From the NCBI GenBank assembly GCA_963663765.2, contig CAXXUA010000006.1, positions 320,001 to 384,000 on the forward strand: a stretch of 64,000 bases of DNA, in the 5' to 3' direction. The translations under genes and the position numbers were made by a program. The stretch is from Candidatus Poribacteria bacterium. Lineage in GTDB: Bacteria > Poribacteria > WGA-4E > WGA-3G. Below, piece after piece: positions 19,841-64,000 of this stretch; position 1 is the first letter of the stretch, and every line of letters begins with the position of its first letter. Below the pieces are notes generated by a model. That model was not told the origin of the DNA. It saw only the letters and a program-made list of their open reading frames with translations, and made no database searches.

Positions 19841-20139
19841 GTGTGTGTGCCTCCTGTGCGTTTTCTCAAGGTCGTTATATTTATTATACTCAACCTGCAG
19901 GATCATGACAAGGGGTTGTCTGAATTGCGTCCTCCGCGCTTTTGTCTGAATCAGGATTTTCAGGATTATCGGATTTCCAGGATGTCCCTTGTCAATGTTT
20001 TTTGATGTGCGTTTATGCTTACTTTTGAAATAGAATTTGATGAGAATAATCCTGGTAATCTGTCCATCCTAATTCAGACAATAAACAAGAATATCACAAG
20101 AGAAAAAGAACCCTACATGAACAGAAAAGGACAAACTAT

Positions 20140-22122: not shown

Positions 22123-22489
22123 GTGTGTGTGCCTCCTGTGCGTTTTCTCAAGGTTAATATATTTATTATACTCAACCTGCAGGAACATGGCAAGAGGATG
22201 TCTGAATTGCGTCCTCTGTGCTTTTGTCTGAACCGGGATTTTCAGGATTATCGGATTTCCAGGATGTCCCTTGTCAATGTTTTTTGATGTGCGTTTATGC
22301 TTACTTTTGAAATAGAATTTGATGAGAAAAATCCTGGTAATCTGCAAATCCCGGGGAATGCCATTGGGCGAATGCGCGTGTGGCATTCGCCATGATTCAT
22401 ACCGTTGATATGTGAATCCTGGTTCAGACAAAAAACAAGAATATCACAAGAGAAAAAGAACCCTACATCAACAGAAAAGGACAAACGAT

Positions 22490-24418: not shown

Positions 24419-24505
24419 GTGTTTGTGCCTCTTGTGCGTTTTCTCAAGGTCAATATATTTATTATACTCAACCTGCAGGATCATGGCAAGGGGTTGTCTG
24501 AATTG

Positions 24506-24627
24506 CAGGGTTATTCAGTTTTAACCATTTTTTACATTTTTGTGAGAAAATCGCGACCGGGAGGTCGCTCCTACCGCGGGGTTTCTTTTTTGAAAAATCC
24601 AAAAATTAGGAAGACTGAATAACCCTG
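24506..24627. mobile_element. MITE (cagggttattcagt...actgaataaccctg) carrying a REP
   Basis: Terminal inverted repeats and 9-bp duplication tctgaattg; identical copy at ~26772-26893. Confidence 0.8.
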
Positions 24628-24746
24628 TCTGAATTGCGTCCTCCGCGCTTTTGTCTGAACCAGGATTTGTAAATCCTGGTTCAGACAATAAACAAGAATA
24701 TCACAAGAGAAAAAGAACCCTACATCAACAGAAAAGGACAAACGAT

Positions 24747-26684: not shown

Positions 26685-27012
26685 GTGTGTGTGCCTCCTG
26701 TGCGTTTTCTCAAGGTTAATATATTTTTTATACTCAACCTGCAGGATCATGACAAGGGGTTGTCTGAATTGCAGGGTTATTCAGTTTTAACCATTTTTTA
26801 CATTTTTGTGAGAAAATCGCGACCGGGAGGTCGCTCCTACCGCGGGGTTTCTTTTTTGAAAAATCCAAAAATTAGGAAGACTGAATAACCCTGTCTGAAT
26901 TGCGTCCTCCGCGCTTTTGTCTGAACCATGATTTGAAAATCCTGGTTCAGACAATAAACAAGAATATCACAAGAGAAAAAGAACCCTACATCAACAGAAA
27001 AGGACAAACGAT

Positions 27013-28962
27013 CTACTCAATCTCCCACAGCAGCAACTGCCCCTGCCTATCCAGGCTTGCCAACGTCGTGCCGAACGCAGCGAATTCCAGTTGAAAAACT
27101 GAGGTGCCACCACCATTAAACGTCTGCAGCACTGCACCTGTCGTGGCATCCAAGATGTGAATCTTCTCTTGAGAATACCCCACCGCGAGTTTCTCCCCAT
27201 CCGGATGATACGCAAGGCTATTCACAGAAAGCTGCGGTTGTCCAAAATGTGTTTTGACCTTATAGGTGCTGGTGTCCAACAGATGAATGGTGCCGCGTTG
27301 GTCAGCAATTGCGAGTGTGTTCCCATCCGGACTATAGGCAACACACCTTATGTCATTTATCTGCGGTTTGATGTCAGGTTTTCTCTCGTCGGTTTCCGCA
27401 TCCCAGAAACGCACCTTCCTATCATAACTGACAGTCACAAGCGTCTTCTTGTCCGGACTATAGGCGACATCCCTAATACTATTATTCTGTCCCCTAATAC
27501 TCTCTTTATATTCCATAAGTGTCCGTTTCCTCTGGTGTGTGTCCGCATCCCACATCTGAACAGTATTATCCCCGCAACCCATTACCAACGTGTTCCCATC
27601 CGGACTATAGGTGACACTCCAAACCCCACCCATATCCACCAGCAGCGTCTTTCCCCTTCTGATTTTGTTGCGATCCAACAAACGGACTGTGCCGTTCCGA
27701 CTTGCAGTTACTATCGTTCTACCATCCGGACTGAACGCAACATCATCAACCCAGTCTTGTCGTTCACTATTGTAAGTTCTTAGTAATTTACCGGTCGCCG
27801 TATCCCAAAGACACATGTAGCTTTCCCTACTCGGAGAGACGATGGACTTACTATCCGGACTGAAAGCGAAACAGGAAAAACCGCCAAAATGTTCTTTTTC
27901 GGTGTGCCTGTTCTTACCGGCAGCAACGTCCCACACACGCAACGTGCCATCACGACTGCCACTGGCAATGGAACGCATATCCGGACTGAACGAAATCGCT
28001 TGAATTGGCTCTCGATGTCCTTTCAGAATTTGCTTCTGTTCGGCTGTGCTTGTCTGGTAAATTACAATTGAATTGAAGTTTTGATCCACAGCGAAGAGAC
28101 TACCTTCTGGACTGAAAGCGATGCGGATTGAACCACCGAACTTACCAGCAATTGTATGTGTCTGTTTCCATCTCTCCGTGTTCCAGATACTGACACCACT
28201 AAACATACCCAAATACGCCAACGTTGTGCCATCCGGACTGAACACCAGCCAATCAAGTGACCATTCATTTATTTCAAGCGTGTGCAAACGTTCCCCAGAA
28301 AGTAGGTCCCACAACTTCACTTGATTGTTATAAGGTCCAGTCGCAAGCAACATATCTACGGGACTGATCGCATAAGTATGCACACCTTCATGCAGTTCTT
28401 TAATCTTACCAATCTCATGTTGTTTTTTACCGGTATCAAGCGACCAATGTTTGATGTGTCCAGCATTGTCTACTGTCACAAGCAATTTCGCATTAGACGT
28501 GATACCGACGACTTGGATATTGTCTTCGACTACAAGATGTTCGTGTATATGTTGATCCCCGTCTACAAGCCGAACTCGGTCTACAAGTTTATATTGATGC
28601 TCACCCGTTTTGCTGTTCCATAGATTGACATTACCCCTCTTGTCTAGACCGGCAAGCCGTTCACCATCCGGACTGAACACGAGTTGGTCAACAGAGGCAC
28701 GGGAATTCGTCAGTAAGTGCTGCGGTTGGAATGTGACCGCATCGTATAGCCAAATGCCGTTAGATGTTGCCACCGCCAGCTGCCTGCCGTCAATACTGTA
28801 TTTGACGTCGTATATAAGTCCTTTACCGAGTCGTGCTCTTGCACCATCAGGTAAGCCGAAAAAGGTGTGTGGTTCTTGCGCAAAAACATCGGGCAGGTAG
28901 AGTGTTGAAAGGGTCAAGATGAGTATGTATATTGTGATGTGCATTCGGTTTTTGGTCTGCAT
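27013..28962 (-). CDS. secreted WD40 repeat protein (tandem copy 5)
   Basis: Paralog. Confidence 0.92.
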   Translation of the reverse strand: MQTKNRMHITIYILILTLSTLYLPDVFAQEPHTFFGLPDGARARLGKGLIYDVKYSIDGRQLAVATSNGIWLYDAVTFQPQHLLTNSRASVDQLVFSPDGERLAGLDKRGNVNLWNSKTGEHQYKLVDRVRLVDGDQHIHEHLVVEDNIQVVGITSNAKLLVTVDNAGHIKHWSLDTGKKQHEIGKIKELHEGVHTYAISPVDMLLATGPYNNQVKLWDLLSGERLHTLEINEWSLDWLVFSPDGTTLAYLGMFSGVSIWNTERWKQTHTIAGKFGGSIRIAFSPEGSLFAVDQNFNSIVIYQTSTAEQKQILKGHREPIQAISFSPDMRSIASGSRDGTLRVWDVAAGKNRHTEKEHFGGFSCFAFSPDSKSIVSPSRESYMCLWDTATGKLLRTYNSERQDWVDDVAFSPDGRTIVTASRNGTVRLLDRNKIRRGKTLLVDMGGVWSVTYSPDGNTLVMGCGDNTVQMWDADTHQRKRTLMEYKESIRGQNNSIRDVAYSPDKKTLVTVSYDRKVRFWDAETDERKPDIKPQINDIRCVAYSPDGNTLAIADQRGTIHLLDTSTYKVKTHFGQPQLSVNSLAYHPDGEKLAVGYSQEKIHILDATTGAVLQTFNGGGTSVFQLEFAAFGTTLASLDRQGQLLLWEIE

Positions 28963-35575: not shown

Positions 35576-37232
35576 CTTTCTTTTACCCATAAGTTTTCAG
35601 CTATAGTGTCTATCAAGGTTGTTTAGCTGGTATTGTTTTGTCCAGCCGCTTGAAAGAGAGCATAGGTGGCAGCAATATCAGAAAGCCTTTTCCATCCTCG
35701 CCAGATAACAGTCACCCCCGGATTGCCATCGGACTTGCGTGCTAAAAATCCACCGAGTTTAGCAATCCAGACAACGACTTCAGACACTCTCGGTATTTTT
35801 TCGGGTAAAATTTGGGTCTTATGCGTTATACAGTAAAGTGCTTGCCATTCTATCTCTGTCAACACGCTCGTGCAATCTACATCCGGTGAGTGCCGATTGA
35901 TGTGGGTCAGCCAGTAAAGTCGCCACGCAATTACACTCAGCAATGCGATATAGCGTTCAAGCCGGTCTTTGGTCTGCAAACGAACTGCCTCCGCCTTCAT
36001 CCCAGATTTGAGCACTTTAAAATAAACTTCAATGTGCCAGCGTTGGCGATACCAGCTTATCCTTTCAACCGCATCGGCGAAGTCCGACACTTCTACATTT
36101 GTTATCAGAAGCCATTCCAAGGGCGTAGCACCCTCAGGCGGGTTTTTCTCTACTACCCATACAAGATACACATCTACAGCAGGCAACTCTTGTGATCGTG
36201 ATGCTTGTGAACGATGTGGTGGGCGAAGCGTCGCTGTTGTAAAATGGACACTCAAGGTCGCCTCACGAGCAGGTTGAGACGCACGCACTGGCACTTGTGC
36301 CGTAATCTCGCCAATAACAGGTTGACTTCTCACCAAATCACTCAGTTTACCGACATCAGCAGCAACCACACGATCCTGAGCCGCGCGTATCACAAAAGGC
36401 AGTTCTTTTGCCTCTACGAAAAACTCGTAAATATCTGCTTCACGATCACACACACAAATCACCTCAACATCTGCTAATGTGTCTGAACGCAACGCTGATA
36501 ATGCCTCAATCCATTTGTAGCTCTCTTTTTCTATGAGCGGTCTGAACTTAGGGGCACTTTGAACGGAGGGTTCGCGAACCCAAACTTTATCTGTCAGACA
36601 CCCTAACGGAAGACCCGCATCACTTACAATGAGGGTCGTGTGTTTGACAAGTCCCTGAATCTGTTGAGACTTGGTGCCGATTGAACCTAAACCCTCTGTT
36701 GCTGGGTGATCAGTGTAATTAAGAAAAGTCGTATCTTGTATCGCAAAAACACGACGATTTTTACACATCCGTTCAAGTGTTCTTTCAAAATGCGGTTTGA
36801 ATATCTTTTCCGATGAGACTTTTTCATTGTCAATTAAACGATAGGCTGCTTTCACTGACGCCCAATCGCCACACGCAGCGTTGATCGCCGAACCGGGTTG
36901 TGCCTCTAAAGCCTCCGCAATGCTGAGCAGCCGTTCATTGAGACGCATATCTCCCAAATCAAGACCTTCAAACTCTTGACGGCTCCAAGATGCAGATAAC
37001 TCTTGATCGTTTTCAGGATTGTGTAAAGACATCATTCACTCCTATAGCATAAGCGTAATAAATGTTTATCGACTTTGTAAATATCACTTTTGAACATAAC
37101 ATATTTGCTTTTGCTATGCAAGGAATATTAGAACTGACTTGAAAACTATACCATCTTTACCAAAACAACAGACATAACTCAACAAAAAAGAAGATGTTTA
37201 CTCAATACATCAAACTTATGGGTAAAAGTAAG
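35576..37232 (-). mobile_element. IS4-family (IS50/Tn5-like) insertion sequence
   Basis: Terminal inverted repeats ctttcttttacccataag / cttatgggtaaaagtaag; 9-bp target duplication cactgaggg (35567-35575, 37233-37241). Confidence 0.92.
35623..37035 (-). CDS. IS4 family transposase
   Basis: 'LGDMRLNERL', 'IQDTT', 'DREADIYE', 'WYRQRWHIEVYFKVLKSG' (YREK), 'LGGFLARKSDGNPG..WRGW'. Confidence 0.95.
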   Translation of the reverse strand: MMSLHNPENDQELSASWSRQEFEGLDLGDMRLNERLLSIAEALEAQPGSAINAACGDWASVKAAYRLIDNEKVSSEKIFKPHFERTLERMCKNRRVFAIQDTTFLNYTDHPATEGLGSIGTKSQQIQGLVKHTTLIVSDAGLPLGCLTDKVWVREPSVQSAPKFRPLIEKESYKWIEALSALRSDTLADVEVICVCDREADIYEFFVEAKELPFVIRAAQDRVVAADVGKLSDLVRSQPVIGEITAQVPVRASQPAREATLSVHFTTATLRPPHRSQASRSQELPAVDVYLVWVVEKNPPEGATPLEWLLITNVEVSDFADAVERISWYRQRWHIEVYFKVLKSGMKAEAVRLQTKDRLERYIALLSVIAWRLYWLTHINRHSPDVDCTSVLTEIEWQALYCITHKTQILPEKIPRVSEVVVWIAKLGGFLARKSDGNPGVTVIWRGWKRLSDIAATYALFQAAGQNNTS

Positions 37233-38910: not shown

Positions 38911-40001
38911 CAGGACTTACGCAGTCTCAAAGATTATCGATGGATTTGAGAGTTGATATCGCATATAATCATCCAATAAACTTTGTTTAAGTTCATAAAT
39001 TGTTTTGCCAAGTTTACGCGCAACACGTTTCAAACAGACCCATATTTGAAAACAACAGGCAATATGATTTCTTTGGGCACGCAACTTGCGACATTGACAT
39101 TTGCCAATACCCGTGACTTGTTTGATCTCACGATGGAGTTGTTCAATCTTCCAACGCATACGACATTCTTGGTGTGCCGCATCCGCATCCGATTGAGATA
39201 AATCGTTTGTCACAATATATTCCGTGCGCCCGGTAGAGGAGGCTATCCGGAACAACTTTACTTGATACCCTTTTGGAAACTTCTTGATGTGCACGCTTTT
39301 CCCTTGCCGGATTTCTGTCCGGGTCCAAGATAGGTCTTGGACTTGTTGGTGCGGTTGCTCGCCATCCGTATCGTTTACAAGACGATTTCGTTTCAGGGGT
39401 ACGTAGTAAATCTTAGAAAGTTTTTCAATCGCTTTCATAACTTGCATGGAGGCATACCAAGTATCCATTAGCACCGTCCGAAACGGTAACTGTTTTTTAG
39501 AGTAAGCGTTGTGCAACATTTCCAGTAAATGGTCTATTTTGGTTTTACCATCATGATCTATGTCATAAATACGGTAATCAATAATCCAATACTCTTCTGT
39601 CTTTGGATTGACATAGATACACGTCACAATACCAATGCCTTTAACGACTTTTTTGTCGCTACCACTCCACTGAGAACGGAGGACCTCAATCTCTTTCGCA
39701 TAGAGTTTAGGTAGCACAACATCGTCAAAAACAATGTAGCCATCATCATCAAACTCAATGTCGTTTTTGACCGAGTTCCAAAGTTCATTCGCGGGGATGT
39801 TTTCACCGCTCAGAAACCGATTGATTTGATCGTGGCTCCACTTATCAGTATGGTCTGCCATATAGGTTTGTGTAAAGTTTGTAAAACTTGATAACAAAAA
39901 TTGACAATAATCTGAATATAAACTTTGTTTCTTTTCGGAAAGTGTAAATGTAATCATAATGGAATAGTATAGCACAAATCTATTATAGTGCGTAAGTCCT
40001 G
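38911..40001 (-). mobile_element. IS701-family insertion sequence
   Basis: Inverted repeats caggacttacgca / tgcgtaagtcctg; 5-bp duplication ttagg. Confidence 0.9.
38917..39975 (-). CDS. IS701 family transposase (DDE)
   Basis: 'YCQFLLSS', 'SHDQINRFL', 'VFDDVVLPK', 'VLMDTWYA', 'RWKIEQLHREIKQVTGI..CQCR..RAQRNHI'. Confidence 0.92.
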   Translation of the reverse strand: MLYYSIMITFTLSEKKQSLYSDYCQFLLSSFTNFTQTYMADHTDKWSHDQINRFLSGENIPANELWNSVKNDIEFDDDGYIVFDDVVLPKLYAKEIEVLRSQWSGSDKKVVKGIGIVTCIYVNPKTEEYWIIDYRIYDIDHDGKTKIDHLLEMLHNAYSKKQLPFRTVLMDTWYASMQVMKAIEKLSKIYYVPLKRNRLVNDTDGEQPHQQVQDLSWTRTEIRQGKSVHIKKFPKGYQVKLFRIASSTGRTEYIVTNDLSQSDADAAHQECRMRWKIEQLHREIKQVTGIGKCQCRKLRAQRNHIACCFQIWVCLKRVARKLGKTIYELKQSLLDDYMRYQLSNPSIIFETA

Positions 40002-40808
40002 TTAGGTTTATAATGCATACATATCGTCCCTACGGGACTAAAGAGGATGTACTATGCCGTTTTTCTATAAACATATCGTCCCTACGGGACTAAAGATCGT
40101 TTCAAACTATGAAGGACACCTGCAAAACGCCATGCTTATGTGAAACAATGATTAACGTATAGTTATTTAGCACAATTCGTTAAGAAGTATGCGAATATGC
40201 CGTTTGCACAGATCACACAGCAGGAAGCGGAGAACCTGAACAAGAATAGAGCCTCTGGGGCAACTTGAGCAGTCTTCGCATTCTTGAAGATGAACTTCAA
40301 TACGAAAAACGGTATGCTGACGACGACTATCGGTGATGATGCGATCAACTACCAGACGATTGCGAACCGGTTGGGGTATCACCGGACGATTATTCGGCGG
40401 TCAGTGCATTGGTTAAATCGGCATCAGATGGTAAATACATACTTGGACAAATTTTTGCGGGGCGTGTCCATAATGTCCTTCCTTCCCCGCAGTCACAGCA
40501 AAATGAGAAGAAAAAATAAAATGTATACTTGTATATTGTCTGAACCAGGATTTACAGGATTAGGGTTTTGAGGAATTAAATCCATCGCGTTGGTAGGAGC
40601 GACCCGGGGAATGCCTTGGGCGAATGCGCTTGGTAGATTACGCGTATGGTATTCTACATGATTCGCCATGATTCATACCTTTGATTTACCTGTCGCGATT
40701 GTCTCGGTACTTGTCCTTCGCAGGTGATGACTGACCGCTGATGGTTATTACCGTTTCTATTCCAAACTGGTGCGATTAGAAGTTTTCCTTTTTGCAGATT
40801 TGTTAAAT

Positions 40809-41135
40809 TTATTTTTTATTGGAGCTGGTTGGTATATTTTTGAAATTAATCCCGATACTAATGACTATCCCTGTTTTTACTTCAACGATGTATGTATGAT
40901 ATTCATGAATTTTACGTTCTTTTGTTTGAGTTTCATATTCAAACTGATAGGCTTTTAGTGTGAGTTCTTCATTGACCAATCGGGGTGTTGAATACTCATA
41001 TCCTTTATAGAACACTTTAACGTGATCTATATGTTGTCCTATGAAGTTATCTTGATGTGTTTTTTCAAAGACTGGGGGATTTGTGGTGCAACTGAAAAGT
41101 GTGAGTATACAGAGTATTAATATTATTTGACGCAT
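40809..41135 (-). CDS. small lipoprotein (paralog B)
   Basis: Lipobox 'LFSC'; RBS gagg; near-identical N-terminus to 41157-41495. Confidence 0.82.
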   Translation of the reverse strand: MRQIILILCILTLFSCTTNPPVFEKTHQDNFIGQHIDHVKVFYKGYEYSTPRLVNEELTLKAYQFEYETQTKERKIHEYHTYIVEVKTGIVISIGINFKNIPTSSNKK

Positions 41136-41156
41136 TTGGTTTTACCTCTATGTTGG

Positions 41157-41495
41157 TTATTTTTTATTGAAACTGGTTGGTCGGTTTTTCATTATGTTTT
41201 TGTATTCAACACCAACGGTAATGACTTTTCCTGTTTTTACTTCAACGATGTATGTATGATATTCATGAATTCTACGTTCTTTTGTTTGAGTTTCATATTC
41301 AAACAGATAGCCTTTTCGTGTGCTATCTCTATCGACCCATCGGGGTGTTGGGTGTTTATATTCTTTATAGAACTCTTTAACGTTATCTATATGTTGTCCT
41401 ATGAAGTTATTTTGGTGTCTATTTTCAAAGATTGAGGGATTTGTGGTGCAACTGAAAAGTGTGAGTATGCAGAGTATTAATATAGTTTGACGCAT
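41157..41495 (-). CDS. small lipoprotein (paralog A)
   Basis: Lipobox 'LFSC'; RBS gagg. Confidence 0.82.
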   Translation of the reverse strand: MRQTILILCILTLFSCTTNPSIFENRHQNNFIGQHIDNVKEFYKEYKHPTPRWVDRDSTRKGYLFEYETQTKERRIHEYHTYIVEVKTGKVITVGVEYKNIMKNRPTSFNKK

Positions 41496-41680
41496 TTGGT
41501 TTTACCTCTATGTTGTTATTTTCTGAGTAATTATTATAATATATTTATGCAGAACTGATTTCATATTTGTATAGGTTTGTTTCTATTCCAAACTGATTCA
41601 ATTAGATAGAAGAAAACCCCTGCCCCTCATCAAAGGGGTAAGAGCAAAAGTTTCTATTCCAAATTAGTTCGATTAGAAAG

Positions 41681-41815
41681 ACATCCAAAAACTATATTAA
41701 TATAATAACTTACCCGCTCGGTACTTGTCAAGTCAATTTTGGTTTTGCTCGGATTTTTGGGGTGTTTGCTGTCGACCTCCAATCGTGCAAAATCTCTGGG
41801 AGGTTGACAGCAGAG
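41681..41815 (-). promoter_or_regulatory. CRISPR leader/promoter of the mini-array
   Basis: Minus strand ctgctgtcaacctcccagagattttgcacgattggaggtcgacagcaaa matches main leader 56743-56792; TTGACA-N18-TATTAT promoter. Confidence 0.75.
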
Positions 41816-42469
41816 TTGTTGGATGTATACACGTATAAATGTATACACACGACTTGTGTCAGTTAACCCATTGTTTTCAAAGTTATTACATATATTAGGT
41901 TTATAATGCGCACATATCGTCCCTACCAAATCAACCCCAAATGCGCCAAATCAACGGTATGAATGCCATTAAGGCATTCCCCGTATGGCATTTGTCGGGA
42001 CTGAAGATCGTTTCAAACTATGAAGGACACCTGCAAAACGTTATGCTTATGTGAAACAATGATTAACATATAGTTATTTAGCACAACTCGTTAATATTAT
42101 ATATGAACGGGTGAGGTGTTTGGGAGGTTTTTTGGATGTTGTTTATTGGGATTTCATATAGATATACAACGGATAATCAATTGACTGGATTGTCTGAACC
42201 AGGATTTTCAGGATTATGAGTTTTGCTCGTTATGGTGCGAATCACAAGTAATACCATTTTCATGTGATAATGTCTCATTAGCAGCGGAAATCTGGTAGGA
42301 GCGACCTCACGGTCGCGACCGGGAGGTCGCTCCTACCGAAGAGAGTAACCCCCTGCCAGTATACAGTAGAATTCCTTAATGAGACAAGATTTATTTGAAT
42401 TGGTATAAGGATAAACGCACATCATATATACCTGGATTTTTTCTGAACCAGGATTTTCAAATCAAGAAA

Positions 42470-43417: not shown

Positions 43418-43498
43418 CCATATCAGAAGATACTTGACTTTTTCACCGACCTTTTGTATATTTTGGTAGCAATATTCAGAGAAAAGGAACAAACATAC

Positions 43499-45340
43499 AT
43501 GAAACATTTATTTTTTTCACTCTTGATGACCCTTGCGATAACCTTCACAAACGCACACACATCGTTTGCACAAGATTACACAATAATGAACCTGCCCGAA
43601 GGTGCGAAGGCCCGATTTGGAAAAAGTTGGGCTGGCGAAATGCAGTATTCACCTGACGGCACAAAGTTAGCGGTAGCAAGTGGCATCGGCGTATGGTTGT
43701 ACGAAACACAGCGAGGCAAAGAACTCTATCTCTACACAGGTCATACGGAGTCGGTCGGAAGCGTAGCGTTCAGTCCGGATGGAGAAACTATCGCCAGTGG
43801 GAGTAGGGACGGCTCAACACATTTATGGAACACAAACACGGGCGCACAGATAGCAATACTTTCGGGATTTACAGGCTCGGTCGGAAGCGTAGCGTTCAGT
43901 CCGGATGGAGAAACTATCGCCAGTGGAGATTATGAAGGCATGATTCATTTATGGTCAGACACAGGTGATTTTATAGAAACGTTTACAGGACATACGGATT
44001 TGGTCAGAAGCATCGCTTTTTCTCCAGATAGCAAGACACTTGCAAGTGGGGGTTGGGATAAAACGCTCCGCTTATGGAACGCAAACACAGGTGTGCATCT
44101 AAAAACACTCTCGGGACATGCGGCTCGGATCAGAAGCGTCGCGTTCAGTCCAGATGGTAAAACTGTCGCAAGTGCAAGTGATGACGACACAATTCGTTTG
44201 TGGAACGCCAACACGGGAACGCTTATGAAAAAACTCACACAACATAGGGATGAAGTCTATAGTATCGCGTTCAGTCCGGATGGCACAACACTCGCAAGCG
44301 GGGGTGATGATAATATGATCCGCATATGGAATGTGAAAACTGGAATGCATGTAAAAACACTCTCCGGACATAAGCGTTTTGTCATCAGCGTTGCGTTCAG
44401 CCCGGATGGCACAACACTTGCAAGTGGGAGTAGGGACGGAACCATCCGTTTCTGGAACGCAAACACGGACAAACTTTTGAATACAATTACAGACCATACA
44501 AATCCTATCAGAAGCGTTGCATTCAGTCCGGATGGAAATACAATTGCAAGTGGAAGTTACAAGAGCATCAAGCTATGGAACACAAACACGGGCGCGAATA
44601 TGATAACACTCTCTGGATTTACAGATTATATCTTCACCGTTGCGTTCAGTCCGGATGGCAACACACTCGCAAATGCAAGTTATGAGAACATCAAGCTATG
44701 GAACGCACACACGGGTGAGCTTCTAAACACTTTATTAGGGCATAAGATTCGTGTCGCAAGCATCGCGTTTTCTCCAGATGGCAGCACACTCGCAAGTGGG
44801 GGTTGGGATAAAACGCTCCGCTTATGGAACGCAAACACCGGTGTGCATCTAAAAACACTCTCTGGATTTCCAGATTATATCTACACCGTCGCGTTCAGTC
44901 CGGATGGAGAAACTATCGCCGGTGCGAGTAAGAACAAGGTACTTTTGTGGAACGTAGACACCGTAGCGCATGTAAAAACACTCTCCGGACATACAGCCGT
45001 TGTGAGCAGCGTTGCGTTCAGTCCAGATGGTAGCATGGTCGCCAGTGGAAGTCGGGATAAAACGCTCCGCTTATGGAACGCAAACACCGGTGCGCACATA
45101 CACACACTCTCTGGACATACGGATGAAGTCAAAACCGTAGCATTCAGTCCAGATGGAGAAATGATTGCAAGCGGGAGTATAGACAAAACCATCCGTTTGT
45201 GGAACGCAAACACCGGTGTGCATCTAAAAACACTCTCGGGACATACGGATGAAGTCTATGGTATTGCGTTCAGTCCGGATGGTAAGACAATCGCCAGTGG
45301 GAGTGATGACGGCACTGTCTTGCTGTGGACAACCCCGTAG
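43499..45340 (+). CDS. secreted WD40 repeat protein (double propeller)
   Basis: Signal peptide, 'LPEGAKARFGK', about 14 WD repeats. Confidence 0.93.
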   Translation: MKHLFFSLLMTLAITFTNAHTSFAQDYTIMNLPEGAKARFGKSWAGEMQYSPDGTKLAVASGIGVWLYETQRGKELYLYTGHTESVGSVAFSPDGETIASGSRDGSTHLWNTNTGAQIAILSGFTGSVGSVAFSPDGETIASGDYEGMIHLWSDTGDFIETFTGHTDLVRSIAFSPDSKTLASGGWDKTLRLWNANTGVHLKTLSGHAARIRSVAFSPDGKTVASASDDDTIRLWNANTGTLMKKLTQHRDEVYSIAFSPDGTTLASGGDDNMIRIWNVKTGMHVKTLSGHKRFVISVAFSPDGTTLASGSRDGTIRFWNANTDKLLNTITDHTNPIRSVAFSPDGNTIASGSYKSIKLWNTNTGANMITLSGFTDYIFTVAFSPDGNTLANASYENIKLWNAHTGELLNTLLGHKIRVASIAFSPDGSTLASGGWDKTLRLWNANTGVHLKTLSGFPDYIYTVAFSPDGETIAGASKNKVLLWNVDTVAHVKTLSGHTAVVSSVAFSPDGSMVASGSRDKTLRLWNANTGAHIHTLSGHTDEVKTVAFSPDGEMIASGSIDKTIRLWNANTGVHLKTLSGHTDEVYGIAFSPDGKTIASGSDDGTVLLWTTP

Positions 45341-49093: not shown

Positions 49094-49482
49094 GAGCTCG
49101 TTTTTATCGGTGAGGACAGCATTGTTTGAACGTCCGTATCTGAAGGAACGGTAGGCGTGCTTTGTAAGCGCTCCCTCTTGTCTGAACCAGGATTTTCAGG
49201 ATTTTTAGGATTTCCACATTAGATGTTTCTGTATAGGGAAAGTGTATCTTTTCAATGGAAATCAACGACATAAAATTCATAATCCTGAAAATCTGGTAAT
49301 CCTGTAAATCATGGTTCAGACAAGAGGGAGCGCTTACAAAGCACCAAATCAAAAAATCAACGGTATGAATACCTTATGGTATTCCCCGGGTATGAATGCC
49401 ATTTAGGCATTCCCCGCCTGCAGGTAATGTTATCGTTTGTGATGTAATATGTCCAAATATTACAACACAAAAGGAGTTTTGT

Positions 49483-50511
49483 ATGAAAAGATGCTTATTG
49501 TTACTCAGTATTTTTTTCGCTATGATGCTCGTTGCGTGTGGCGGTGATGATGAGATAACTACACCTATAGAAGACGATAATATGGTGATGGATAACGGCA
49601 CACAAACGCCTATAGAACTACTACCAGAACCTGTCAGGATCTATTATTCAGGCACACTCACAGGACATTGGGATTATGTTGAATCCGTGGCGTTTAGTCC
49701 GGATGGGAGCATGCTCGCCAGTGGAAGTTGGGACAACACCGTTCGTTTGTGGAACACAAGTGACGGCACGCCTCTCCGCACACTTACAGGACATTGGCGC
49801 AGTATCTATAGCGTCGCTTTTAGTCCGGATGGCATCATCATCGCCAGTGGGAGTTCTGACAACACCATTCGTTTGTGGAACACAAGCTGCGGAACGCTTC
49901 TCCGCACACTTACAGGGCATACTCATTTTGTCAGAAGCGTAGCGTTCAGTCCGGATGGTAAGACAATTGCGAGTGGTAGTTCTGACAACACCATTCGTTT
50001 GTGGAATGTAAACGACGGCACACACATCCGCACGTTCACAGGACATACGCATATTATCAGAAGCGTAGCGTTCAGTCCAGATGGAGACACTCTCGCCAGT
50101 TGCAGTGGGGACAACACCGTCCGTTTGTGGAATATAAGTGATGGTACATACCTCAGCACGTTCACAGGACATCCGGAAACCGTCGCGTTCAGTCCGGATG
50201 GTAAAACTCTCGCCAGCAGCAGTAGAGAGGACATCCGTTTATTGAACGTAAGTGACGGCTCGCTTATCCGTACGTTCAGAGGGCATTTGAATGGTGTCTC
50301 ACAAGTAGTGTTCAGTCCGGATGGTAAAACTCTCGCTAGCAGCAGTTGGGACGCCACCGCCCGTTTGTGGAATGTAGACGACGGCACGCATCTCCGCACG
50401 TTCACAGGGTATTTGAATGTTGTTTTGAGCGTCGCGTTCAGTTCTGACGGTAATTCCCTCGCAAGTGGCAGTGGGGACAACACCGTGCGTATGTGGGATG
50501 TAAGTGAGTGA
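49483..50511 (+). CDS. WD40 repeat lipoprotein
   Basis: Lipobox 'LVACGG'; 7 WD repeats; RBS aaggag. Confidence 0.92.
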   Translation: MKRCLLLLSIFFAMMLVACGGDDEITTPIEDDNMVMDNGTQTPIELLPEPVRIYYSGTLTGHWDYVESVAFSPDGSMLASGSWDNTVRLWNTSDGTPLRTLTGHWRSIYSVAFSPDGIIIASGSSDNTIRLWNTSCGTLLRTLTGHTHFVRSVAFSPDGKTIASGSSDNTIRLWNVNDGTHIRTFTGHTHIIRSVAFSPDGDTLASCSGDNTVRLWNISDGTYLSTFTGHPETVAFSPDGKTLASSSREDIRLLNVSDGSLIRTFRGHLNGVSQVVFSPDGKTLASSSWDATARLWNVDDGTHLRTFTGYLNVVLSVAFSSDGNSLASGSGDNTVRMWDVSE

Positions 50512-52847: not shown

Positions 52848-53825
52848 ATGAGAAGAAGTTTATTGATACTCAGTATTTTCCTTGCCATGATGCTGGTTGC
52901 ATGTGGTGGTGATGATGAACCTATCATAGATCCTGACAAGACGTATTTTTCAGGCATACTCAAAGGGCATACAAAGAGTGTCTACACTGTAGCGTTTAGT
53001 CCGGATGGGAACACCCTTGCCAGTGGGGGTTATGACAAAACCATTCGTCTGTGGGACACGGACGATGGGACACAGATACGTATATTATCAGGACATAGGG
53101 GGCCTGTCAGTAGCGTAGCGTTCAGTCCGGATGGTAGCACTATCGCAAGTGGCAGTCAGGACTATACTATTCTATTATGGAACGCAAATAACGGCACGCC
53201 TCTCCGCTCCCTCACAGGGCATACGAATGAGGTCAGAAGTGTTGCGTTCAGTCCGGATGGTAGCACGGTCGCCAGTGGCAGTAATGACAGTACCATCCGT
53301 TTGTGGAACGCAAGTAACGGTACACATATCCGCACGTTCACAGGGCATAGGGGAGCTGTCCGGAGTGTTGCGTTCAATCCGGATGGTAATACCCTCGCCA
53401 GTGGGAGTGATGACGGTACCATTCGCGTGTGGAATGTAAGTGATGACAAGCTTCCTCGCACGCTCCCAGGTCATTTGCTGGGTGTCTTCACCGTAGCGTT
53501 CAATCCGGATGGTAGCACCCTCGCCAGTGGGAGTTGGGACGCAACCATCAATTTGTGGGACGCAAATGACTGCATACATCTCCACACCCTCACTGGGCAT
53601 ACAGGTTCTATCTTAAGCGTGGTGTTTAGTCCCGATGGTAGCACACTCGCAAGTGGGAGTGGTGACGATACCATACGTTTGTGGGACGCAAGTGATGGGT
53701 CGCATCTCCGCACGCTTTTATGGAATTTCTATGAGATCACAAGCGTAGCGTTTAGTCCGGATGGTAAAGCCCTTGCCGGTGCCAATGGTGACATCACCGT
53801 CCGCATGTGGGACCTCACTGAGTGA
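52848..53825 (+). CDS. WD40 repeat lipoprotein
   Basis: Lipobox 'LVACGG'; 7 WD repeats; RBS aaggag. Confidence 0.92.
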   Translation: MRRSLLILSIFLAMMLVACGGDDEPIIDPDKTYFSGILKGHTKSVYTVAFSPDGNTLASGGYDKTIRLWDTDDGTQIRILSGHRGPVSSVAFSPDGSTIASGSQDYTILLWNANNGTPLRSLTGHTNEVRSVAFSPDGSTVASGSNDSTIRLWNASNGTHIRTFTGHRGAVRSVAFNPDGNTLASGSDDGTIRVWNVSDDKLPRTLPGHLLGVFTVAFNPDGSTLASGSWDATINLWDANDCIHLHTLTGHTGSILSVVFSPDGSTLASGSGDDTIRLWDASDGSHLRTLLWNFYEITSVAFSPDGKALAGANGDITVRMWDLTE

Positions 53826-56531: not shown

Positions 56532-56649
56532 TGGTATGCGCGGTTCTGTTGCGTGATTCAAAATGGATGACAAAAAAGGTGATGGGTGTAGATGAGAATC
56601 CTTCTACAAACCTACTTTAGATAAGGGGTCACAGCAACTATCGTTCAAG

Positions 56650-56867
56650 TATTCTGCTGTCGACCTCCGAATTATGCGGATTTTTTTACGGACATATTTT
56701 GCGAATTATCCTCAAAATTGCGTGTAAACCCTTTCTACTTCTACTGCCGTCAGCCTCCCAGAGAATTTGCACGATTGGAGGTTGACGGCAAATCGTAAAT
56801 ATATTGAAATTTAACTTGACGATAACTGTGGGAGTTTGTTATGATGTAACTGTTGTTTTTGGGGAGC
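56650..56867 (+). promoter_or_regulatory. CRISPR leader with promoter
   Basis: Non-coding; TTGACG-N18-TATGAT (extended TG) just upstream of repeat 1; palindrome at 56743-56790. Confidence 0.75.
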
Positions 56868-59800
56868 CTTTTAATCGAACCAGTTTGGAATAGAAACATA
56901 GTCCATCCTTCCTAACCAAAAGGGGATACCTACTTTTAATCGAACCAGTTTGGAATAGAAACAGAGGAACGCTCTCACAAAATCAATCTCCAAATTGAAA
57001 TCTTTTAATCGAACCAGTTTGGAATAGAAACTCTAATTTCATTTGAAACAGCCAACCTACATGTCTGCTTTTAATCGAACCAGTTTGGAATAGAAACACT
57101 CTTTGAACTCCCACGTCTCCCACGGATTACGTGCTTTTAATCGAACCAGTTTGGAATAGAAACTGGTACGTTGAAAAAGCACCAGGACATGCAACGCAGG
57201 CTTTTAATCGAACCAGTTTGGAATAGAAACCCAATAGCAGCACCTTTGGGTCCAAAAAAACTACCGACTTTTAATCGAACCAGTTTGGAATAGAAACCTC
57301 TGTGTCCAATTCGCCCTGAAGTATGGCAGCACCCTTTTAATCGAACCAGTTTGGAATAGAAACGTCTTCTTCCTTCATAATATTCTCCCTTGTAAATGAC
57401 CTTTTAATCGAACCAGTTTGGAATAGAAACTTCAACCCATTGTTCGTCTGACTCCCCTTCACGTCTTTTAATCGAACCAGTTTGGAATAGAAACTTAGGT
57501 GTGGGTGCTTTGGTACTGTGTGTGGTTGGCTTTTAATCGAACCAGTTTGGAATAGAAACATCTCAGCAAATCCGGATTCAGTTGGTGCTTTACGAGTGCC
57601 TTTTAATCGAACCAGTTTGGAATAGAAACGGTCTAAAGGACTTTCTTTCTTATCACGGGTTGTCGCCAACTTTTAATCGAACCAGTTTGGAATAGAAACT
57701 TTTCATTTGTTCATATTTGGTGAAAGTAATAGCTATACTTTTAATCGAACCAGTTTGGAATAGAAACATCGTCCCCGCTGTCCGTGCCGTTGGCGTGGTT
57801 GCACTTTTAATCGAACCAGTTTGGAATAGAAACGATATAGATTATACACCTCAAAAGTCAAGTCTTCGCCTTTTAATCGAACCAGTTTGGAATAGAAACG
57901 AAACCGGTGATGCACTAACTTTTAAAGTGAACTTGAGACTTTTAATCGAACCAGTTTGGAATAGAAACTTAATAGAAAATCAGGCTCTTATCATTGAAAC
58001 CTACTTTTAATCGAACCAGTTTGGAATAGAAACTGACTTCCTGCAAGGATTTCCCAATTTTCCGTTGTTCTTTTAATCGAACCAGTTTGGAATAGAAACT
58101 CTGGCACATCATAATCAGATTGAAACGCAATGGACTTTTAATCGAACCAGTTTGGAATAGAAACTTTGGCATAGGATACATCGCCTGAACACGTGCTTGC
58201 CACTTTTAATCGAACCAGTTTGGAATAGAAACACCTACATCAAAAACCTATGAATGATAAAAACAAATTCTTTTAATCGAACCAGTTTGGAATAGAAACA
58301 CGGAAAGCCATTACACCCTAACGGGAAAGGATAATCTTTTAATCGAACCAGTTTGGAATAGAAACTTATGACGATTGATACGTCCCAAATACAACATGTA
58401 ATCTTTTAATCGAACCAGTTTGGAATAGAAACAATGAAGAATTAAACGCTTATACTCTTATTGATGGTGACTTTTAATCGAACCAGTTTGGAATAGAAAC
58501 GTAGTACCACCAAGCCGACCAGCCAAGTTAGTTCCCATCCTTTTAATCGAACCAGTTTGGAATAGAAACTCTGTGATATACTATATCATAGACAAATTAA
58601 CGCAAATACTTTTAATCAAACCAGTTTGGAATAGAAACAAATCTCTCCGTCATACTGAGCGACACACTCAAACTTTTAATCGAACCAGTTTGGAATAGAA
58701 ACCAGTTTTGCGATTTCACAGCAGCAATAAATTTGTGAACTTTTAATCGAACCAGTTTGGAATAGAAACTCAAGTCCTTGCGAGACTCTACCTGATGTTC
58801 CTTCCTTTTAATCGAACCAGTTTGGAATAGAAACCTTTATGAAATCTGTTAATTTCTTGGGATCGGTGCGTCTTTTAATCGAACCAGTTTGGAATAGAAA
58901 CGATAATACTACCAGTTTGCCTTTAACGTTATGACCTTGTCTTTTAATCGAACCAGTTTGGAATAGAAACGACTCCGCATTAACCTCAAACTGCTTCTTT
59001 ACATTACTTTTAATCGAACCAGTTTGGAATAGAAACTGTTTGGCAAGCTTCAACGATGCACGAATTGTTTCCTTTTAATCGAACCAGTTTGGAATAGAAA
59101 CGTGAAATTATGTGTGAGTGCCGTTGCTGCAAGGTCTATCCACCTTTTAATCGAACCAGTTTGGAATAGAAACAATGGATTACTCATTACTCTGATGTCT
59201 CCTCAAAGTCCTTTTAATCGAACCAGTTTGGAATAGAAACTCTTGACGCGCTTTATATATAACACAAAACTTTGACTTTTAATCGAACCAGTTTGGAATA
59301 GAAACGCTTTTCGGCACAAGCACAATGCGTATCATATTACTTTTAATCGAACCAGTTTGGAATAGAAACTACGCTATGACAATAGCTCTGTTTTCATCTT
59401 TTACTTTTAATCGAACCAGTTTGGAATAGAAACTCTATAACAAATCCTTATATAATTGCAGCAATTGAGACTTTTAATCGAACCAGTTTGGAATAGAAAC
59501 GGCGACATATAAAGAGGTAGGAATGTGCCGAGTGTTACTTTTAATCGAACCAGTTTGGAATAGAAACCGTCAAGTTCATCAAAAGCGACTGACAAGTTAT
59601 TGCTTTTAATCGAACCAGTTTGGAATAGAAACGCTGCCTTGCGCGCGGATTTTAGGTTGATCGCAGTTTGCTTTTAATCGAACCAGTTTGGAATAGAAAC
59701 GTGGGGTGCAAGGGTGTGGTGTGTATTCCGCACACAAACGACTTTTAATCGAACCAGTTTGGAATAGAAACTGTATTAGGGATAAATAAGGTCAACAATT

Positions 59801-62800
59801 AAAATTGACTTTTAATCGAACCAGTTTGGAATAGAAACCAATTTGGATTAGACAACTTGTGGAGAAAGCGATCATCTTTTAATCAAACCAGTTTGGAATA
59901 GAAACTCACTTCTTGATTGAGTGAAATAGTTGTAAGATAGACTTTTAATCGAACCAGTTTGGAATAGAAACACACTGCCATCAGTCCATATCTTTTGCAG
60001 TGACAACTTTTAATCGAACCAGTTTGGAATAGAAACTGTGGGAATTGCAACGTGATGTTCGCATCCGTCGGTTCACTTTTAATCGAACCAGTTTGGAATA
60101 GAAACAGGCTAACATAATTCTAACTCCTGATGTGTGAGTGGCTTTTAATCGAACCAGTTTGGAATAGAAACAGCATCTCATGCACACCAGAACTACGCCG
60201 CACGTGTTCCTTTTAATCGAACCAGTTTGGAATAGAAACGCTAACGATGTGCTTTTGATAGGTGCTGAGTATGACTTTTAATCGAACCAGTTTGGAATAG
60301 AAACGATGCTTCGATACCAACAGGATTTAGTATTTCAGGAACTTTTAATCGAACCAGTTTGGAATAGAAACAACACACTCACAGCATCATTTTTAGATTG
60401 TGCAAGGCTTTTAATCGAACCAGTTTGGAATAGAAACGTCGTCCTCGCCTAGTGTGTGTTTTTTATATGTCATGCTTTTAATCGAACCAGTTTGGAATAG
60501 AAACTCTGACGCTTTTTACGAGTAGGTTCTGATAGGTGTTACCTTTTAATCGAACCAGTTTGGAATAGAAACGTTTCCTCTGGGTCGCAGCTGAGGTTTT
60601 GCAGGCGTTCTACTTTTAATCGAACCAGTTTGGAATAGAAACTATCATTTCCTAATGTTGCCCGATACCGCAACCGACTTTTAATCGAACCAGTTTGGAA
60701 TAGAAACATTCAAGTATGTTGTGCCATCTTTATCAGACAACGCCTTCTTTTAATCGAACCAGTTTGGAATAGAAACGAGATCATAGATTGTTTTTCCAGT
60801 ATTGTTCTGAGTTCACTTTTAATCGAACCAGTTTGGAATAGAAACTAAAAGAGCCGAGCCGTATTTTTCCCTGATTTGTGGCACTTTTAATCGAACCAGT
60901 TTGGAATAGAAACATGGATTAGTTGACATTGAAAATGTTAGCGATATTATTAAACTTTTAATCGAACCAGTTTGGAATAGAAACATGACTTCTGCATATC
61001 CTACGAGATCAAGTGGCATTGCCTTTTAATCGAACCAGTTTGGAATAGAAACGGAACATCGCAATCAAATAAAAGAGGGTAATATTCACCTTTTAATCGA
61101 ACCAGTTTGGAATAGAAACACCACATTTTCAGAGATAGTGGCAGGATCACCAACGACTTTTAATCGAACCAGTTTGGAATAGAAACGTATCTTGCTGAAA
61201 TCAATATCACGCAAGAATCTACCTTTTAATCGAACCAGTTTGGAATAGAAACGAATATGCGACTAATTTTGACAATCCTGACATAGTGACTTTTAATCGA
61301 ACCAGTTTGGAATAGAAACAAGCCAGTATGGTCACGTGATTACTTTATGCAAACTTTTAATCGAACCAGTTTGGAATAGAAACCTTTTCTTTGGTTGGCG
61401 ACCATCGACAACGCAATTTTCTTTTAATCGAACCAGTTTGGAATAGAAACATTTTTGGTCCTTATACGGTCACTGCTCCGATTGTCTTTTAATCGAACTA
61501 GTTTGGAATAGAAACGCTCTCGGTTGGTGTTGTTCACAACAAACGCATGAACACGTCTTTTAATCGAACCAGTTTGGAATAGAAACGAAATTTATTATGC
61601 TGGATTACAAGACGAGGGAGGAACTTTTAATCGAACCAGTTTGGAATAGAAACTTCACGGTGTTGTAGTACTGCTTGGTGCTTGTCAGGCTTTTAATCGA
61701 ACCAGTTTGGAATAGAAACACAGACGCATCATCGTGGCAAAACTGGTAAACGACAAGCTTTTAATCGAACCAGTTTGGAATAGAAACAGAGGTGCGTGTG
61801 GGCAGAGTAAAGTCTAAATCACACTTTTAATCGAACTAGTTTGGAATAGAAACAGTATTTAGACATTCGCGTGGACATTCTCTTAATATCTTTTAATCGA
61901 ACTAGTTTGGAATAGAAACCCGTCTTGTCAGATGATCCTGTGTCTGTAATCACGCTTTTAATCGAACCAGTTTGGAATAGAAACTCATTTGGATGAAGCG
62001 TTCGGAGGTAATGTTCATTACTTTTAATCCAACCAGTTTGGAATAGAAACGTCTTATCTAAAAGTGTTTTCAGTTCCCTTAAAGCTTTTAATCGAACCAG
62101 TTTGGAATAGAAACCCTAACTGGACTCACTTTCGTATGATAGATTTTGGATCTTTTAATCGAACCAGTTTGGAATAGAAACCTGACAACGAGTGCATCAT
62201 CTGATCCGCTATTTACCTTTTAATCGAACCAGTTTGGAATAGAAACCTAAATGTAGCAGTGTCAATAGAAAGTGTTGTGCCCTTTTAATCGAACCAGTTT
62301 GGAATAGAAACATATAAGCAAAGTCATAAGGTATGTCTTTAGGTTCCTTTTAATCGAACCAGTTTGGAATAGAAACAATTGCACGCAATGGAAGAAAGAA
62401 AACAGGACGAGTTAACTTTTAATCGAACCAGTTTGGAATAGAAACATTCCTGCTAAATCAATTATTATTTTACTCTTCTTTCTTTTAATCGAACCAGTTT
62501 GGAATAGAAACGAACCATGCCTTACTGTGTCAAAATTCCATATTCTACTTTTAATCGAACCAGTTTGGAATAGAAACTTTGGTAAGAAACAACATCAAGA
62601 GGTATAACGTGACTTTTAATCGAACCAGTTTGGAATAGAAACATTGCTTCAGGTCAGACATATCCTCCAATTCCGCACTTTTAATCGAACCAGTTTGGAA
62701 TAGAAACAACTTTTTACAAGAACGGCGAGGTGGAACTCAAAAAGCTTTTAATCGAACCAGTTTGGAATAGAAACTTCACGTTCGGTTTCAGGGATGACGA

Positions 62801-64000
62801 GGAGGACTTGGACTTTTAATCGAACCAGTTTGGAATAGAAACTTAAATCTTTATCCTCAACTATTTCTGCAGTTTCTATGACTTTTAATCGAACCAGTTT
62901 GGAATAGAAACATTTACTTCTCAGGCCTCTACTGGATAAAAGCGTCGCTTTTAATCGAACCAGTTTGGAATAGAAACTTTGACGAATTATGACGAATTAT
63001 GACGAATTTTAAGGCTTTTAATCGAACCAGTTTGGAATAGAAACTTCCTTTGCGATGTATATCGCTTCTGGGTTTTGATCTTTTAATCGAACCAGTTTGG
63101 AATAGAAACTCGTATTAGCAGCAGGTCTCGCAATCCCCCAAGACGCTTTTAATCGAACCAGTTTGGAATAGAAACTTTTGATGCGACAGTACGACATGCC
63201 ACCAGAAACCTTTTAATCGAACCAGTTTGGAATAGAAACAAGCCCGCGACGACGAGAGACGACTCAACGAAGACTTTTAATCGAACCAGTTTGGAATAGA
63301 AACAACTTCCCCGTAATCCTATCAAAAAACATGCTAAACCTTTTAATCGAACCAGTTTGGAATAGAAACGTTTCGTGTCCCCCCGTCTTCAGCGTTTTGT
63401 TCCATCCTTTTAATCGAACCAGTTTGGAATAGAAACTAAGTAAAACCAGTATTTAGAAGATAATAAATTTCACTTTTAATCGAACCAGTTTGGAATAGAA
63501 ACTTAGCATAAACATCAATAAACATTATGTCTTCAGCTTTTAATCGAACCAGTTTGGAATAGAAACTTCAAAAGGTCTTTGACGTAGTGGTACCAAATCA
63601 CTTTTAATCGAACCAGTTTGGAATAGAAACTCGAGAGTACAATAGAAAGGATGAAAATAAGAAATAAACTTTTAATCGAACCAGTTTGGAATAGAAACAT
63701 CCTAATCCTAACTAAAATTGAAAATGAACTTTTACTTTTAATCGAACCAGTTTGGAATAGAAACCTGCCTATAAGCATAGAAGAACAAAGAGAGAAGGTA
63801 CTTTTAATCGAACCAGTTTGGAATAGAAACGTTGGCTCCATTATCATTACGCAACTGGGTACTTTGCTCTTTTAATCGAACCAGTTTGGAATAGAAACTC
63901 TGCTGTGGTCTCTGGGGCTGCGGCGACTCTTTTTCCCTTTTAATCGAACCAGTTTGGAATAGAAACTCAAGCACGGTGGATTTTTCGGTTGACGCATCAA
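56868..64000 (+). CRISPR. large CRISPR array, 30-bp repeat CTTTTAATCGAACCAGTTTGGAATAGAAAC, ~107 repeats, continues past window end (type I-B-like repeat)
   Basis: Near-invariant repeat with ~33-40 nt spacers; 3' GAAAC end; count estimated from the ~66-bp period. Confidence 0.98.

Follow-up and report, generated by a model that had tools for sequence, protein, structure and literature searches.

Two predicted lipoprotein genes in the spacer position of a three-repeat CRISPR locus from a Candidatus Poribacteria bacterium

Among the known departures from the regular CRISPR layout, orphan or degenerate arrays, together with arrays broken up by mobile DNA (insertion sequences, IS; miniature inverted-repeat transposable elements, MITEs; Tn7-like elements), come closest to the locus that we describe here. 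It lies in a 64,000-nt stretch of DNA (the window) from a Candidatus Poribacteria bacterium, and in it two predicted lipoprotein genes take the place of a spacer between CRISPR repeats; like those arrays, it has non-spacer DNA inside an array and sits away from the cas genes. We read it, with a probability of roughly 0.55, as an orphan array in decay that has captured foreign genes, with the hairpin of its one normal-length spacer (S1) insulating the genes from the leader promoter. In cyanobacteria, 36% of the placeable cases of Tn7-like array-targeting transposons occupy the spacer that separates the final pair of repeats, and this array-homing family is described as carrying transposition genes and no cargo (PMC11837452). 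Our insert differs in having cargo, namely two ORFan genes (open reading frames, ORFs, without relatives), in being flanked by two complete repeats, and in having no transposase, terminal inverted repeats or target duplication.

A second group of relatives consists of cr-like mini-arrays, in which two repeat-like units enclose a 20-60 bp spacer that guides Cascade to promoters. Shmakov et al. 2023 (PMC10120712) describe these as widespread in type I systems, and those of type I-B as clustering around cas6, within the cas operon or beside it, usually without a leader, with a spacer that can pair in part with a promoter close by. With CreA/CreR mini-arrays our locus shares a type I-B setting, two drifted repeats, one spacer of normal length and a preserved handle-coding part, but it has a leader and a trailer, is ~42 kb from the cas genes, shows a third repeat 826 nt later, and its S1 is self-structured and without a target above chance. 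Solitary repeat units, RNA anti-CRISPRs and virus-borne mini-arrays are copies of repeats found on phages or plasmids (PMC10651486). They likewise offer Cas proteins potential binding sites in the form of repeats that do not belong to a regular array; here, by contrast, no phage or plasmid hallmarks surround the cassette, and both array ends are chromosomal paralogues. We found no described case of protein-coding genes in spacer position in the literature searched, where the supplementary tables of PMC10120712, which cover mini-arrays of at least three repeats, might contain a parallel. The locus, with an ORFan lipoprotein gene pair in spacer position, is a single instance. In synthetic biology, sites for Csy4, an endoribonuclease of the Cas6 family, are placed on either side of ORFs to insulate mRNAs. 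This design resembles one of the models weighed below, in which an endoribonuclease site stands on each side of a coding sequence; it is engineered, whereas processing at our locus is hypothetical, and we know of no natural counterpart.

The genome comprises 6.35 Mb in 15 contigs, and the window covers nucleotides 320001-384000 of one of them, C6 (521 kb). At up to two mismatches, GTTTGGAATAGAAAC, the 15-nt core of the repeat, has 111 matches in the window, against 0.24 expected. Almost all of them (107/111) belong to the main plus-strand array starting at 56868; three are on the minus strand (40753, 41579 and 41650), and the leftover one, at 1742 with two mismatches, is probably due to chance. 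The three minus-strand matches mark repeats R1 to R3 of a locus ~42 kb from cas6 and in the opposite orientation. Direct reading of that strand recovered every element that a previous sequence-only reading of this DNA had placed there, in the order leader homologue, R1, S1, R2, AT-rich stretch, gene 1, gene 2 and R3; our analysis adds a trailer after R3. One detail changed: R1 is where it had been placed, but its length of 31 nt gave way to 30 nt in a gapless alignment of leaders, the extra base being the last of the leader. The features are as follows.

41849..42000, strand not assigned: multi-copy repeat element truncating the leader (~152 nt, at least 10 other copies in the genome at 94-98% identity)
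41681..41815, minus: retained part of the leader (palindrome 41767-41812; -35 box TTGACA 41731-41726; -10 box TATTAT 41707-41702)
41650..41679, minus: R1, TTTCTAATCGAACTAATTTGGAATAGAAAC (30 nt; substitutions C1>T and C14>T, both in the 5' half)
41609..41649, minus: S1, a 41-nt "spacer" with a 12-pair hairpin followed by UUUUCUUC, terminator-like
41579..41608, minus: R2, TATCTAATTGAATCAGTTTGGAATAGAAAC (four changes from the array 2 consensus, all in positions 1-13)
41496..41578, minus: AT-rich stretch (83 nt, 23% GC) with weak promoter-like hexamers and a ribosome-binding site
41157..41495, minus: gene 1 (P0001), 112-aa predicted lipoprotein, ORFan
40809..41135, minus: gene 2 (P0002), 108-aa paralogue of gene 1
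40753..40782, minus: R3, CTTCTAATCGCACCAGTTTGGAATAGAAAC (two mismatches to the array 1 consensus, one to that of array 2)
40721..40752, minus: ancestral trailer (oldest spacer), common to other array ends

The spacing from R1 to R2 is that of a regular array, with a 41-nt spacer, whereas R2 and R3 are irregularly spaced, 796 nt apart with the two genes between them. For comparison, the same genome has the following arrays.

56868..64000, plus, continuing for 570 bases beyond the window (C6 376868-384570): main type I-B array (array 1), 116 repeats in total, repeat sequence CTTTTAATCGAACCAGTTTGGAATAGAAAC
56640..56867, plus: array 1 leader, used as comparison leader
C6 413336-420786: array 2, 112 repeats, with four further repeats at 422788-423020
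contig C4: C4 array, 79 repeats
C6 400893/401404: remnant array of two repeats

The resident CRISPR system is of type I-B (its Cas8b was named by PADLOC, E 1.4e-11), and its operon, cas6 (C6 402223-402975) followed by cas8b-cas7-cas5-cas3-cas4-cas1-cas2, lies on C6 between the remnant array and array 2. As an observation on array 1 itself, a remnant of the 3' end of cas2 together with the start of a leader is found at 56550-56637 of the window, between a sulfatase gene and the array 1 leader, and aligns with the real cas2-leader junction at 67 identical columns out of 89. Array 1 is therefore the product of a duplication that took in cas2, leader and array as one module.

The outer parts of the three-repeat locus are homologous to those of real arrays. 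Its leader can be aligned with three others, those of array 1, array 2 and the C4 array, from ~41815 down to R1, the closest being that of C4, with 86% identity over 168 nt. The distal part of the leader has been lost because the multi-copy element occupies the sequence upstream of 41849, and homology ends at ~41815. What remains includes a palindrome with 14-nt arms (41767-41780 and 41799-41812) that are 93% complementary and 18 nt apart, and a promoter-like site, TTGACA-18-TATTAT, that scores 11/12. Both hexamers are kept relative to the other leaders, while the 18 nt between them have changed. Alignment and promoter scan thus bear out the earlier proposal of a leader homologous to that of the main array with palindrome and promoter. 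Since the palindrome lies upstream of the -35 box, it is likelier to be a protein-binding DNA site than an RNA structure. The palindrome and promoter also recur at 70-80% identity in 20 of the 39 other genomes of the genus, among the matches listed (L007-L017).

The repeats belong to the family of the resident cas operon, with identities to the array 1 consensus of 26/30 for R1, 25/30 for R2 and 28/30 for R3. The A16 of R1 is also present in the modal repeat of the C4 array, R3 is identical (no mismatches) to the array repeat of a congener (L016), and R2 and R3 differ from each other at 5/30 positions. Beyond R3, the 32-nt trailer agrees in register with the end of array 2 at 21/32 positions and with the remnant array at 18/32; none of 20000 shuffles reached a score of 21, the maximum being 18. 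R3 and the trailer also match arrays of a congener (G092). An ancestral trailer after R3 means that the locus is a complete but collapsed paralogous array shell, with three repeats as compared to 79-116 in the live arrays. These findings show that both ends of the ancestral array module survive and that the shell is homologous to real arrays at leader and trailer.

The contents of this shell are of a different kind. Since a lipoprotein signal peptide ends in a lipobox with Cys at +1, we looked for this signature by eye, and both proteins begin with MRQ, continue with a hydrophobic stretch and carry an LFSC lipobox at residues 13-16, which predicts a lipoprotein signal in each. The two proteins are 74% identical, both frames are intact, and each gene has a GAGG 9 nt upstream of its ATG. 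The duplicated units, including the ribosome-binding site, share 85% identity over 367 nt, and the genes have diverged with a synonymous distance (dS) of 0.19, a nonsynonymous to synonymous ratio (dN/dS) of 0.69 and one in-frame 12-nt indel. Judged by these alignments, the pair is the product of a tandem duplication that included the ribosome-binding site. Because the frames have stayed open in 31%-GC DNA and the indel is in frame, they are probably real genes under weak or patchy constraint. Upstream of gene 1, the promoter-like site of the AT-rich stretch, ATGAAA-17-TATTAT, scores 9/12, which is no better than shuffles. Downstream, 26 nt separate the stop codon of gene 2 from R3, with no stable structure in between (fold z 0.00).

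The 796-nt interval between R2 and R3 has 31.4% GC; the window as a whole stands at 44.5% and the contigs at 40-44%. No DNA paralogue of the cassette was found elsewhere in the genome. A six-frame search of 175 other genomes of the phylum returned no relative of either protein, so the cassette is present in 1/176 phylum genomes, and no relatives were found among 5.8 billion proteins (word search), among 1.84 billion representative proteins (HMMER profile search) or in metagenome, viral, phage and plasmid collections. Nothing significant was matched in Pfam, PHROGs, NCBIfam or PADLOC. The AlphaFold model, in which a helix and a sheet of four strands follow the signal peptide, is weak (predicted local distance difference test, pLDDT, 52); the best hit of a wide structural search was a designed cystatin-fold protein with a Z of 6.7, a value inside the tool's stated noise range. 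A protein atlas placed the proteins near unnamed small-protein clusters at 0.92 and, as a lead to BamE/SmpA_OmlA, at 0.88 to a cluster with 11% BamE members; Pfam gave no such hit at E values up to 10. When the spacers of the 176 phylum genomes were compared with the cassette, only chance-level hits (E at least 0.001) were obtained, none of them in a known array. The cassette is thus compositionally foreign and unique.

One further observation concerns leader and genes together. A perfect 14-nt inverted match connects leader positions 41689-41702, just after the -10 box, with positions 41475-41488 of gene 1 (codons 3-7), and gene 2 has a 12/14 copy of the site at the equivalent position, 41115-41128. 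We did not build on this complementarity, because about half of the leader arm precedes the predicted transcription start.

Between the leader promoter and the lipoprotein genes stands S1, whose structure had gone unnoticed in the sequence-only reading. It folds at -16.2 kcal/mol, and none of the 307 real spacers, which we extracted from four arrays of the genome and which are 32-42 nt long, matches this stability (mean -3.7, minimum -13.3 kcal/mol). The R1-S1-R2 segment folds better than all of 200 shuffles (z -3.9), and a scan tool flags a terminator-like site in S1, at 41636-41617. Across the genome, hairpins of the strength of S1 are found 59/900 times downstream of long ORFs and 16/900 times inside genes. 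A search of the whole genome for a target of S1 gave a best ungapped match of 26/41, as compared to 26-28 for 10 shuffles, and seed-only matches of ~11 nt were indistinguishable from chance; an Rfam scan of the window returned no family reaching the gathering threshold. By the stability of its fold, S1 is not an ordinary spacer and is unlike captured foreign DNA without selected structure. Transcripts from the leader could be halted ahead of R2 by this hairpin and its U-rich tail.

The homology of the shell, its decay (a truncated leader, two substitutions in R1 and four in R2, and three repeats left) and the foreign, unique cassette all favour what had previously been offered as a fallback, a gene cassette in a decaying array. 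The S1 barrier between promoter and genes, the mobile DNA in other arrays of the genome, the transposase genes nearby and the regular spacing of congener arrays, the last three described below, speak for it as well. The locus would be a type I-B array paralogous to the others of the genome, old and collapsed. Its ordinary spacers have gone; the leader with two drifted repeats on its side, and the ancestral trailer with one repeat on its own, have survived. An AT-rich, horizontally acquired cassette would have entered a spacer position by recombination or insertion, at first with one lipoprotein gene, the second arising later by duplication in place. The two genes would form a bicistronic operon encoding a pair of exported lipoproteins. 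With leader transcripts damped by the S1 hairpin, most of its expression would start in the AT-rich stretch downstream of R2. The flanking repeats would then be historical baggage, and any cutting by Cas6 a side effect rather than the reason for the arrangement.

Several observations pull away from capture in a decaying array. The repeats on either side of the insert are complete, and it takes up exactly one spacer position between them. A transposase gene is missing, the only ORFs of at least 60 aa in the insert being the two lipoprotein genes and their antisense frames; no inverted repeat pairs its two borders, and the short direct repeat that flanks it lacks significance (P 0.44). With no transposase, inverted ends or significant flanking repeat, no insertion mechanism is demonstrated. 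Insulation by S1 has its own difficulty: under a stricter hairpin-plus-U rule, terminators after long ORFs are not enriched (60 co-oriented and 82 anti-oriented of 3062), and this rule does not call S1, so the label "terminator" is uncertain, although we judged the hairpin-strength test more informative than this crude rule. That S1 is such an outlier suggests selection on something. The repeats do not look uniformly decayed either. Measured against the closest consensus, substitutions in R1-R3 amount to 7/45 in the 5' halves and 0-1/45 in the 3' halves (Fisher P 0.006-0.03), so the earlier remark that the 3' handle part is kept in all three while the 5' part drifts was right; sporadic variants among 311 repeats of live arrays show the same bias (11 in 5' halves, 2 in 3' halves). 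In addition, R3 equals a congener consensus while the adjoining trailer has diverged by a third, and the promoter hexamers are intact despite the diverged spacer between them. Counted over few substitutions, these selection-type signs may keep functional readings alive.

The likeliest of the alternatives, and still an unlikely one, is functional coupling, in which the leader promoter would transcribe the operon within a pre-CRISPR RNA (pre-crRNA)-like transcript and Cas6 would cut at R2 and R3 to release the mRNA, so that lipoprotein output would track CRISPR expression. What had been proposed under the image of a protein-coding "giant spacer", transcribed from the leader and excised by Cas6, gains some support from the data: the promoter is intact at 11/12 with hexamers conserved relative to other leaders, the 3' halves, including the 8-nt handle region, are unchanged in three repeats whose 5' halves drift, R3 shows no change although the trailer next to it has diverged, a complete type I-B operon and Cas6 are available ~42 kb away, and both ORFs are intact after a dS of 0.19. 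With no stable structure between gene 2 and R3, R3 could also define the 3' end of the mRNA. Leader transcription meets an obstacle, however, in the S1 hairpin and U-rich tail between promoter and R2; the conservation of the 3' halves is a matter of very few substitutions, the arrangement occurs in only 1/176 phylum genomes and 0/11 congener arrays read show anything similar. As the genes have no relatives, their co-occurrence with repeats cannot be shown, which also counts against coupling. The same hairpin would instead be an asset if R1-S1-R2 were a cr-like small-RNA gene, a CreA/CreR-type regulator or a Cas decoy, with the lipoprotein genes as neighbours or regulated cargo: structured S1 and its U-tail would end a short RNA, which would have its own promoter and conserved handle-coding repeat halves, and two repeat-like units around a 41-nt spacer fall within the 20-60 bp range given for mini-arrays in PMC10120712. 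We nevertheless consider this quite improbable, since the genome match of S1 (26/41) is not beyond chance (shuffles 26-28), a self-folding guide is atypical, the locus is ~42 kb from the cas operon and not inside it, and R3 is left unexplained; the earlier analogy with CreTA/CreR accordingly found no support, S1 being without a target above chance. A slimmer chance goes to S1 as a Cas-sensitive attenuator, whose hairpin would normally stop leader transcripts but would be kept from forming once Cas6 and Cascade subunits had taken hold of the nascent R1 handle and covered S1, permitting read-through; such read-through would cross R2 into the operon, and Cas6 would trim the mRNA at R2 and R3.

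Two further alternatives concern how the insert came to be there. Mis-integration by Cas4-Cas1-Cas2, which would have taken up a fragment several hundred base pairs long in place of a normal spacer, followed by internal duplication, would account for an insert of exactly one spacer position between complete repeats and for the lack of transposon ends, and cas1, cas2 and cas4 are present. It strikes us as very unlikely, as all 307 real spacers are 32-42 nt long, the insert is not leader-proximal and R2 and R3 differ at 5/30 positions. To our knowledge, kilobase-scale integration by Cas1-Cas2 in vivo is without precedent. Hardly credible, finally, is an assembly artefact in which an unrelated segment was joined via CRISPR repeats. 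Repeats are classic sites of misjoins, and among the contig pieces listed from public runs none crosses the junction of gene 2 with R3 with 31 nt to either side. Against this, R2 and R3 are unique variants, the 521-kb contig carries arrays of more than 100 repeats intact, and the same sequence is present in five public runs from two studies. In the four runs examined as contigs, pieces covering the genes were found in 4/4, and in 3/4 a contig 393-440 nt long runs without a difference from the start of gene 1 through R2, S1 and R1 into the leader; no RNA is on record among the runs carrying the stretch. The run contigs were also searched for the gene-less allele that the sequence-only reading had suggested looking for. 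They contain joints skipping 792-983 nt between repeats, with short sides (20-30 nt) that lie inside CRISPR repeats, which we did not accept as such an allele because any repeat-spacer contig of the other arrays gives them.

If the arrangement is only historical, it shows that arrays duplicate as whole leader-to-trailer modules, can collapse and can be landing sites, and that foreign ORFan genes persist and duplicate inside a collapsed array. If the repeats are still used, it would be the first natural case known to us of a CRISPR leader and Cas6 sites framing an mRNA, and the non-immune regulatory roles of CRISPR parts would extend from small RNAs to protein-coding cargo. Were S1 an attenuator, two surface lipoproteins would report or depend on the state of CRISPR-Cas, making the cassette a Cas-gated protein-coding "spacer".

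Interruption by mobile DNA is not confined to this locus. Array 2 is divided by a 2-kb block whose inverted ends are CAATACCTTCGCC, and an element of this type also terminates array 1. A different MITE, with ends CCATAGGTGTCAAC, lies inside a repeat of the two-repeat remnant array (C6 400960-401405 = L001:16960-17405); it carries short repeats of the GCGCGCTTACAAAGCAC type found in this genome and differs from the CAATACCTTCGCC family. The arrays of this repeat-ridden genome are thus often interrupted. In congeners, by comparison, 11/11 arrays read from the leader are regular over the first 21-22 spacings (61-72 nt). Sites of the CAATACCTTCGCC MITE/IS family at arrays are C6 384614-385189, 420833-422787 and 400869, and one full copy encodes a DDE_5 transposase (L001:15065-16786). 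With ~190 ends in the genome and AT-rich landing sites, the family is not CRISPR-specific; its three sites in or beside CRISPR repeats apparently reflect the AT-rich, TTAA-like target that the repeat contains. For the lipoprotein insert itself, a transposon or IS insertion as such was considered and rejected, as transposase, terminal inverted repeats and target duplication are all missing there. Two transposase genes are nearby, at 35623-37035 and 38917-39975.

The cas operon contains a group of repeats of its own. Between cas6 and cas8b, the interval that is the typical site of CreA/CreR-type regulatory mini-arrays in type I-B loci, there are repeat-like copies.

C6 403319-403412: repeat-like copies between cas6 and cas8b, with a third, more degenerate copy extending to ~403480 (by eye)

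The spacers of this trio (C6 403319-403480 = L001:19319-19480) are 34 and 35 nt long, and their matches in the genome are not above chance. Directly upstream of the trio lies a small antitoxin-like ORF (…DEYDFSEGIRGKY…).

Elsewhere in the window, at 12021-13683, a gene for a ParA-like AAA_31 ATPase overlaps one for a RiboL-PSP HEPN-domain protein, which may form a two-gene defence or addiction module. Genes for WD40-repeat proteins are numerous (17951-28962, 43454-45340, 49396-50511 and 52848-53825) and include five tandem paralogues of 649-763 aa; the DNA between them has long tandem repeats, whose periods are 22, 36, 37, 126 and 234 nt.

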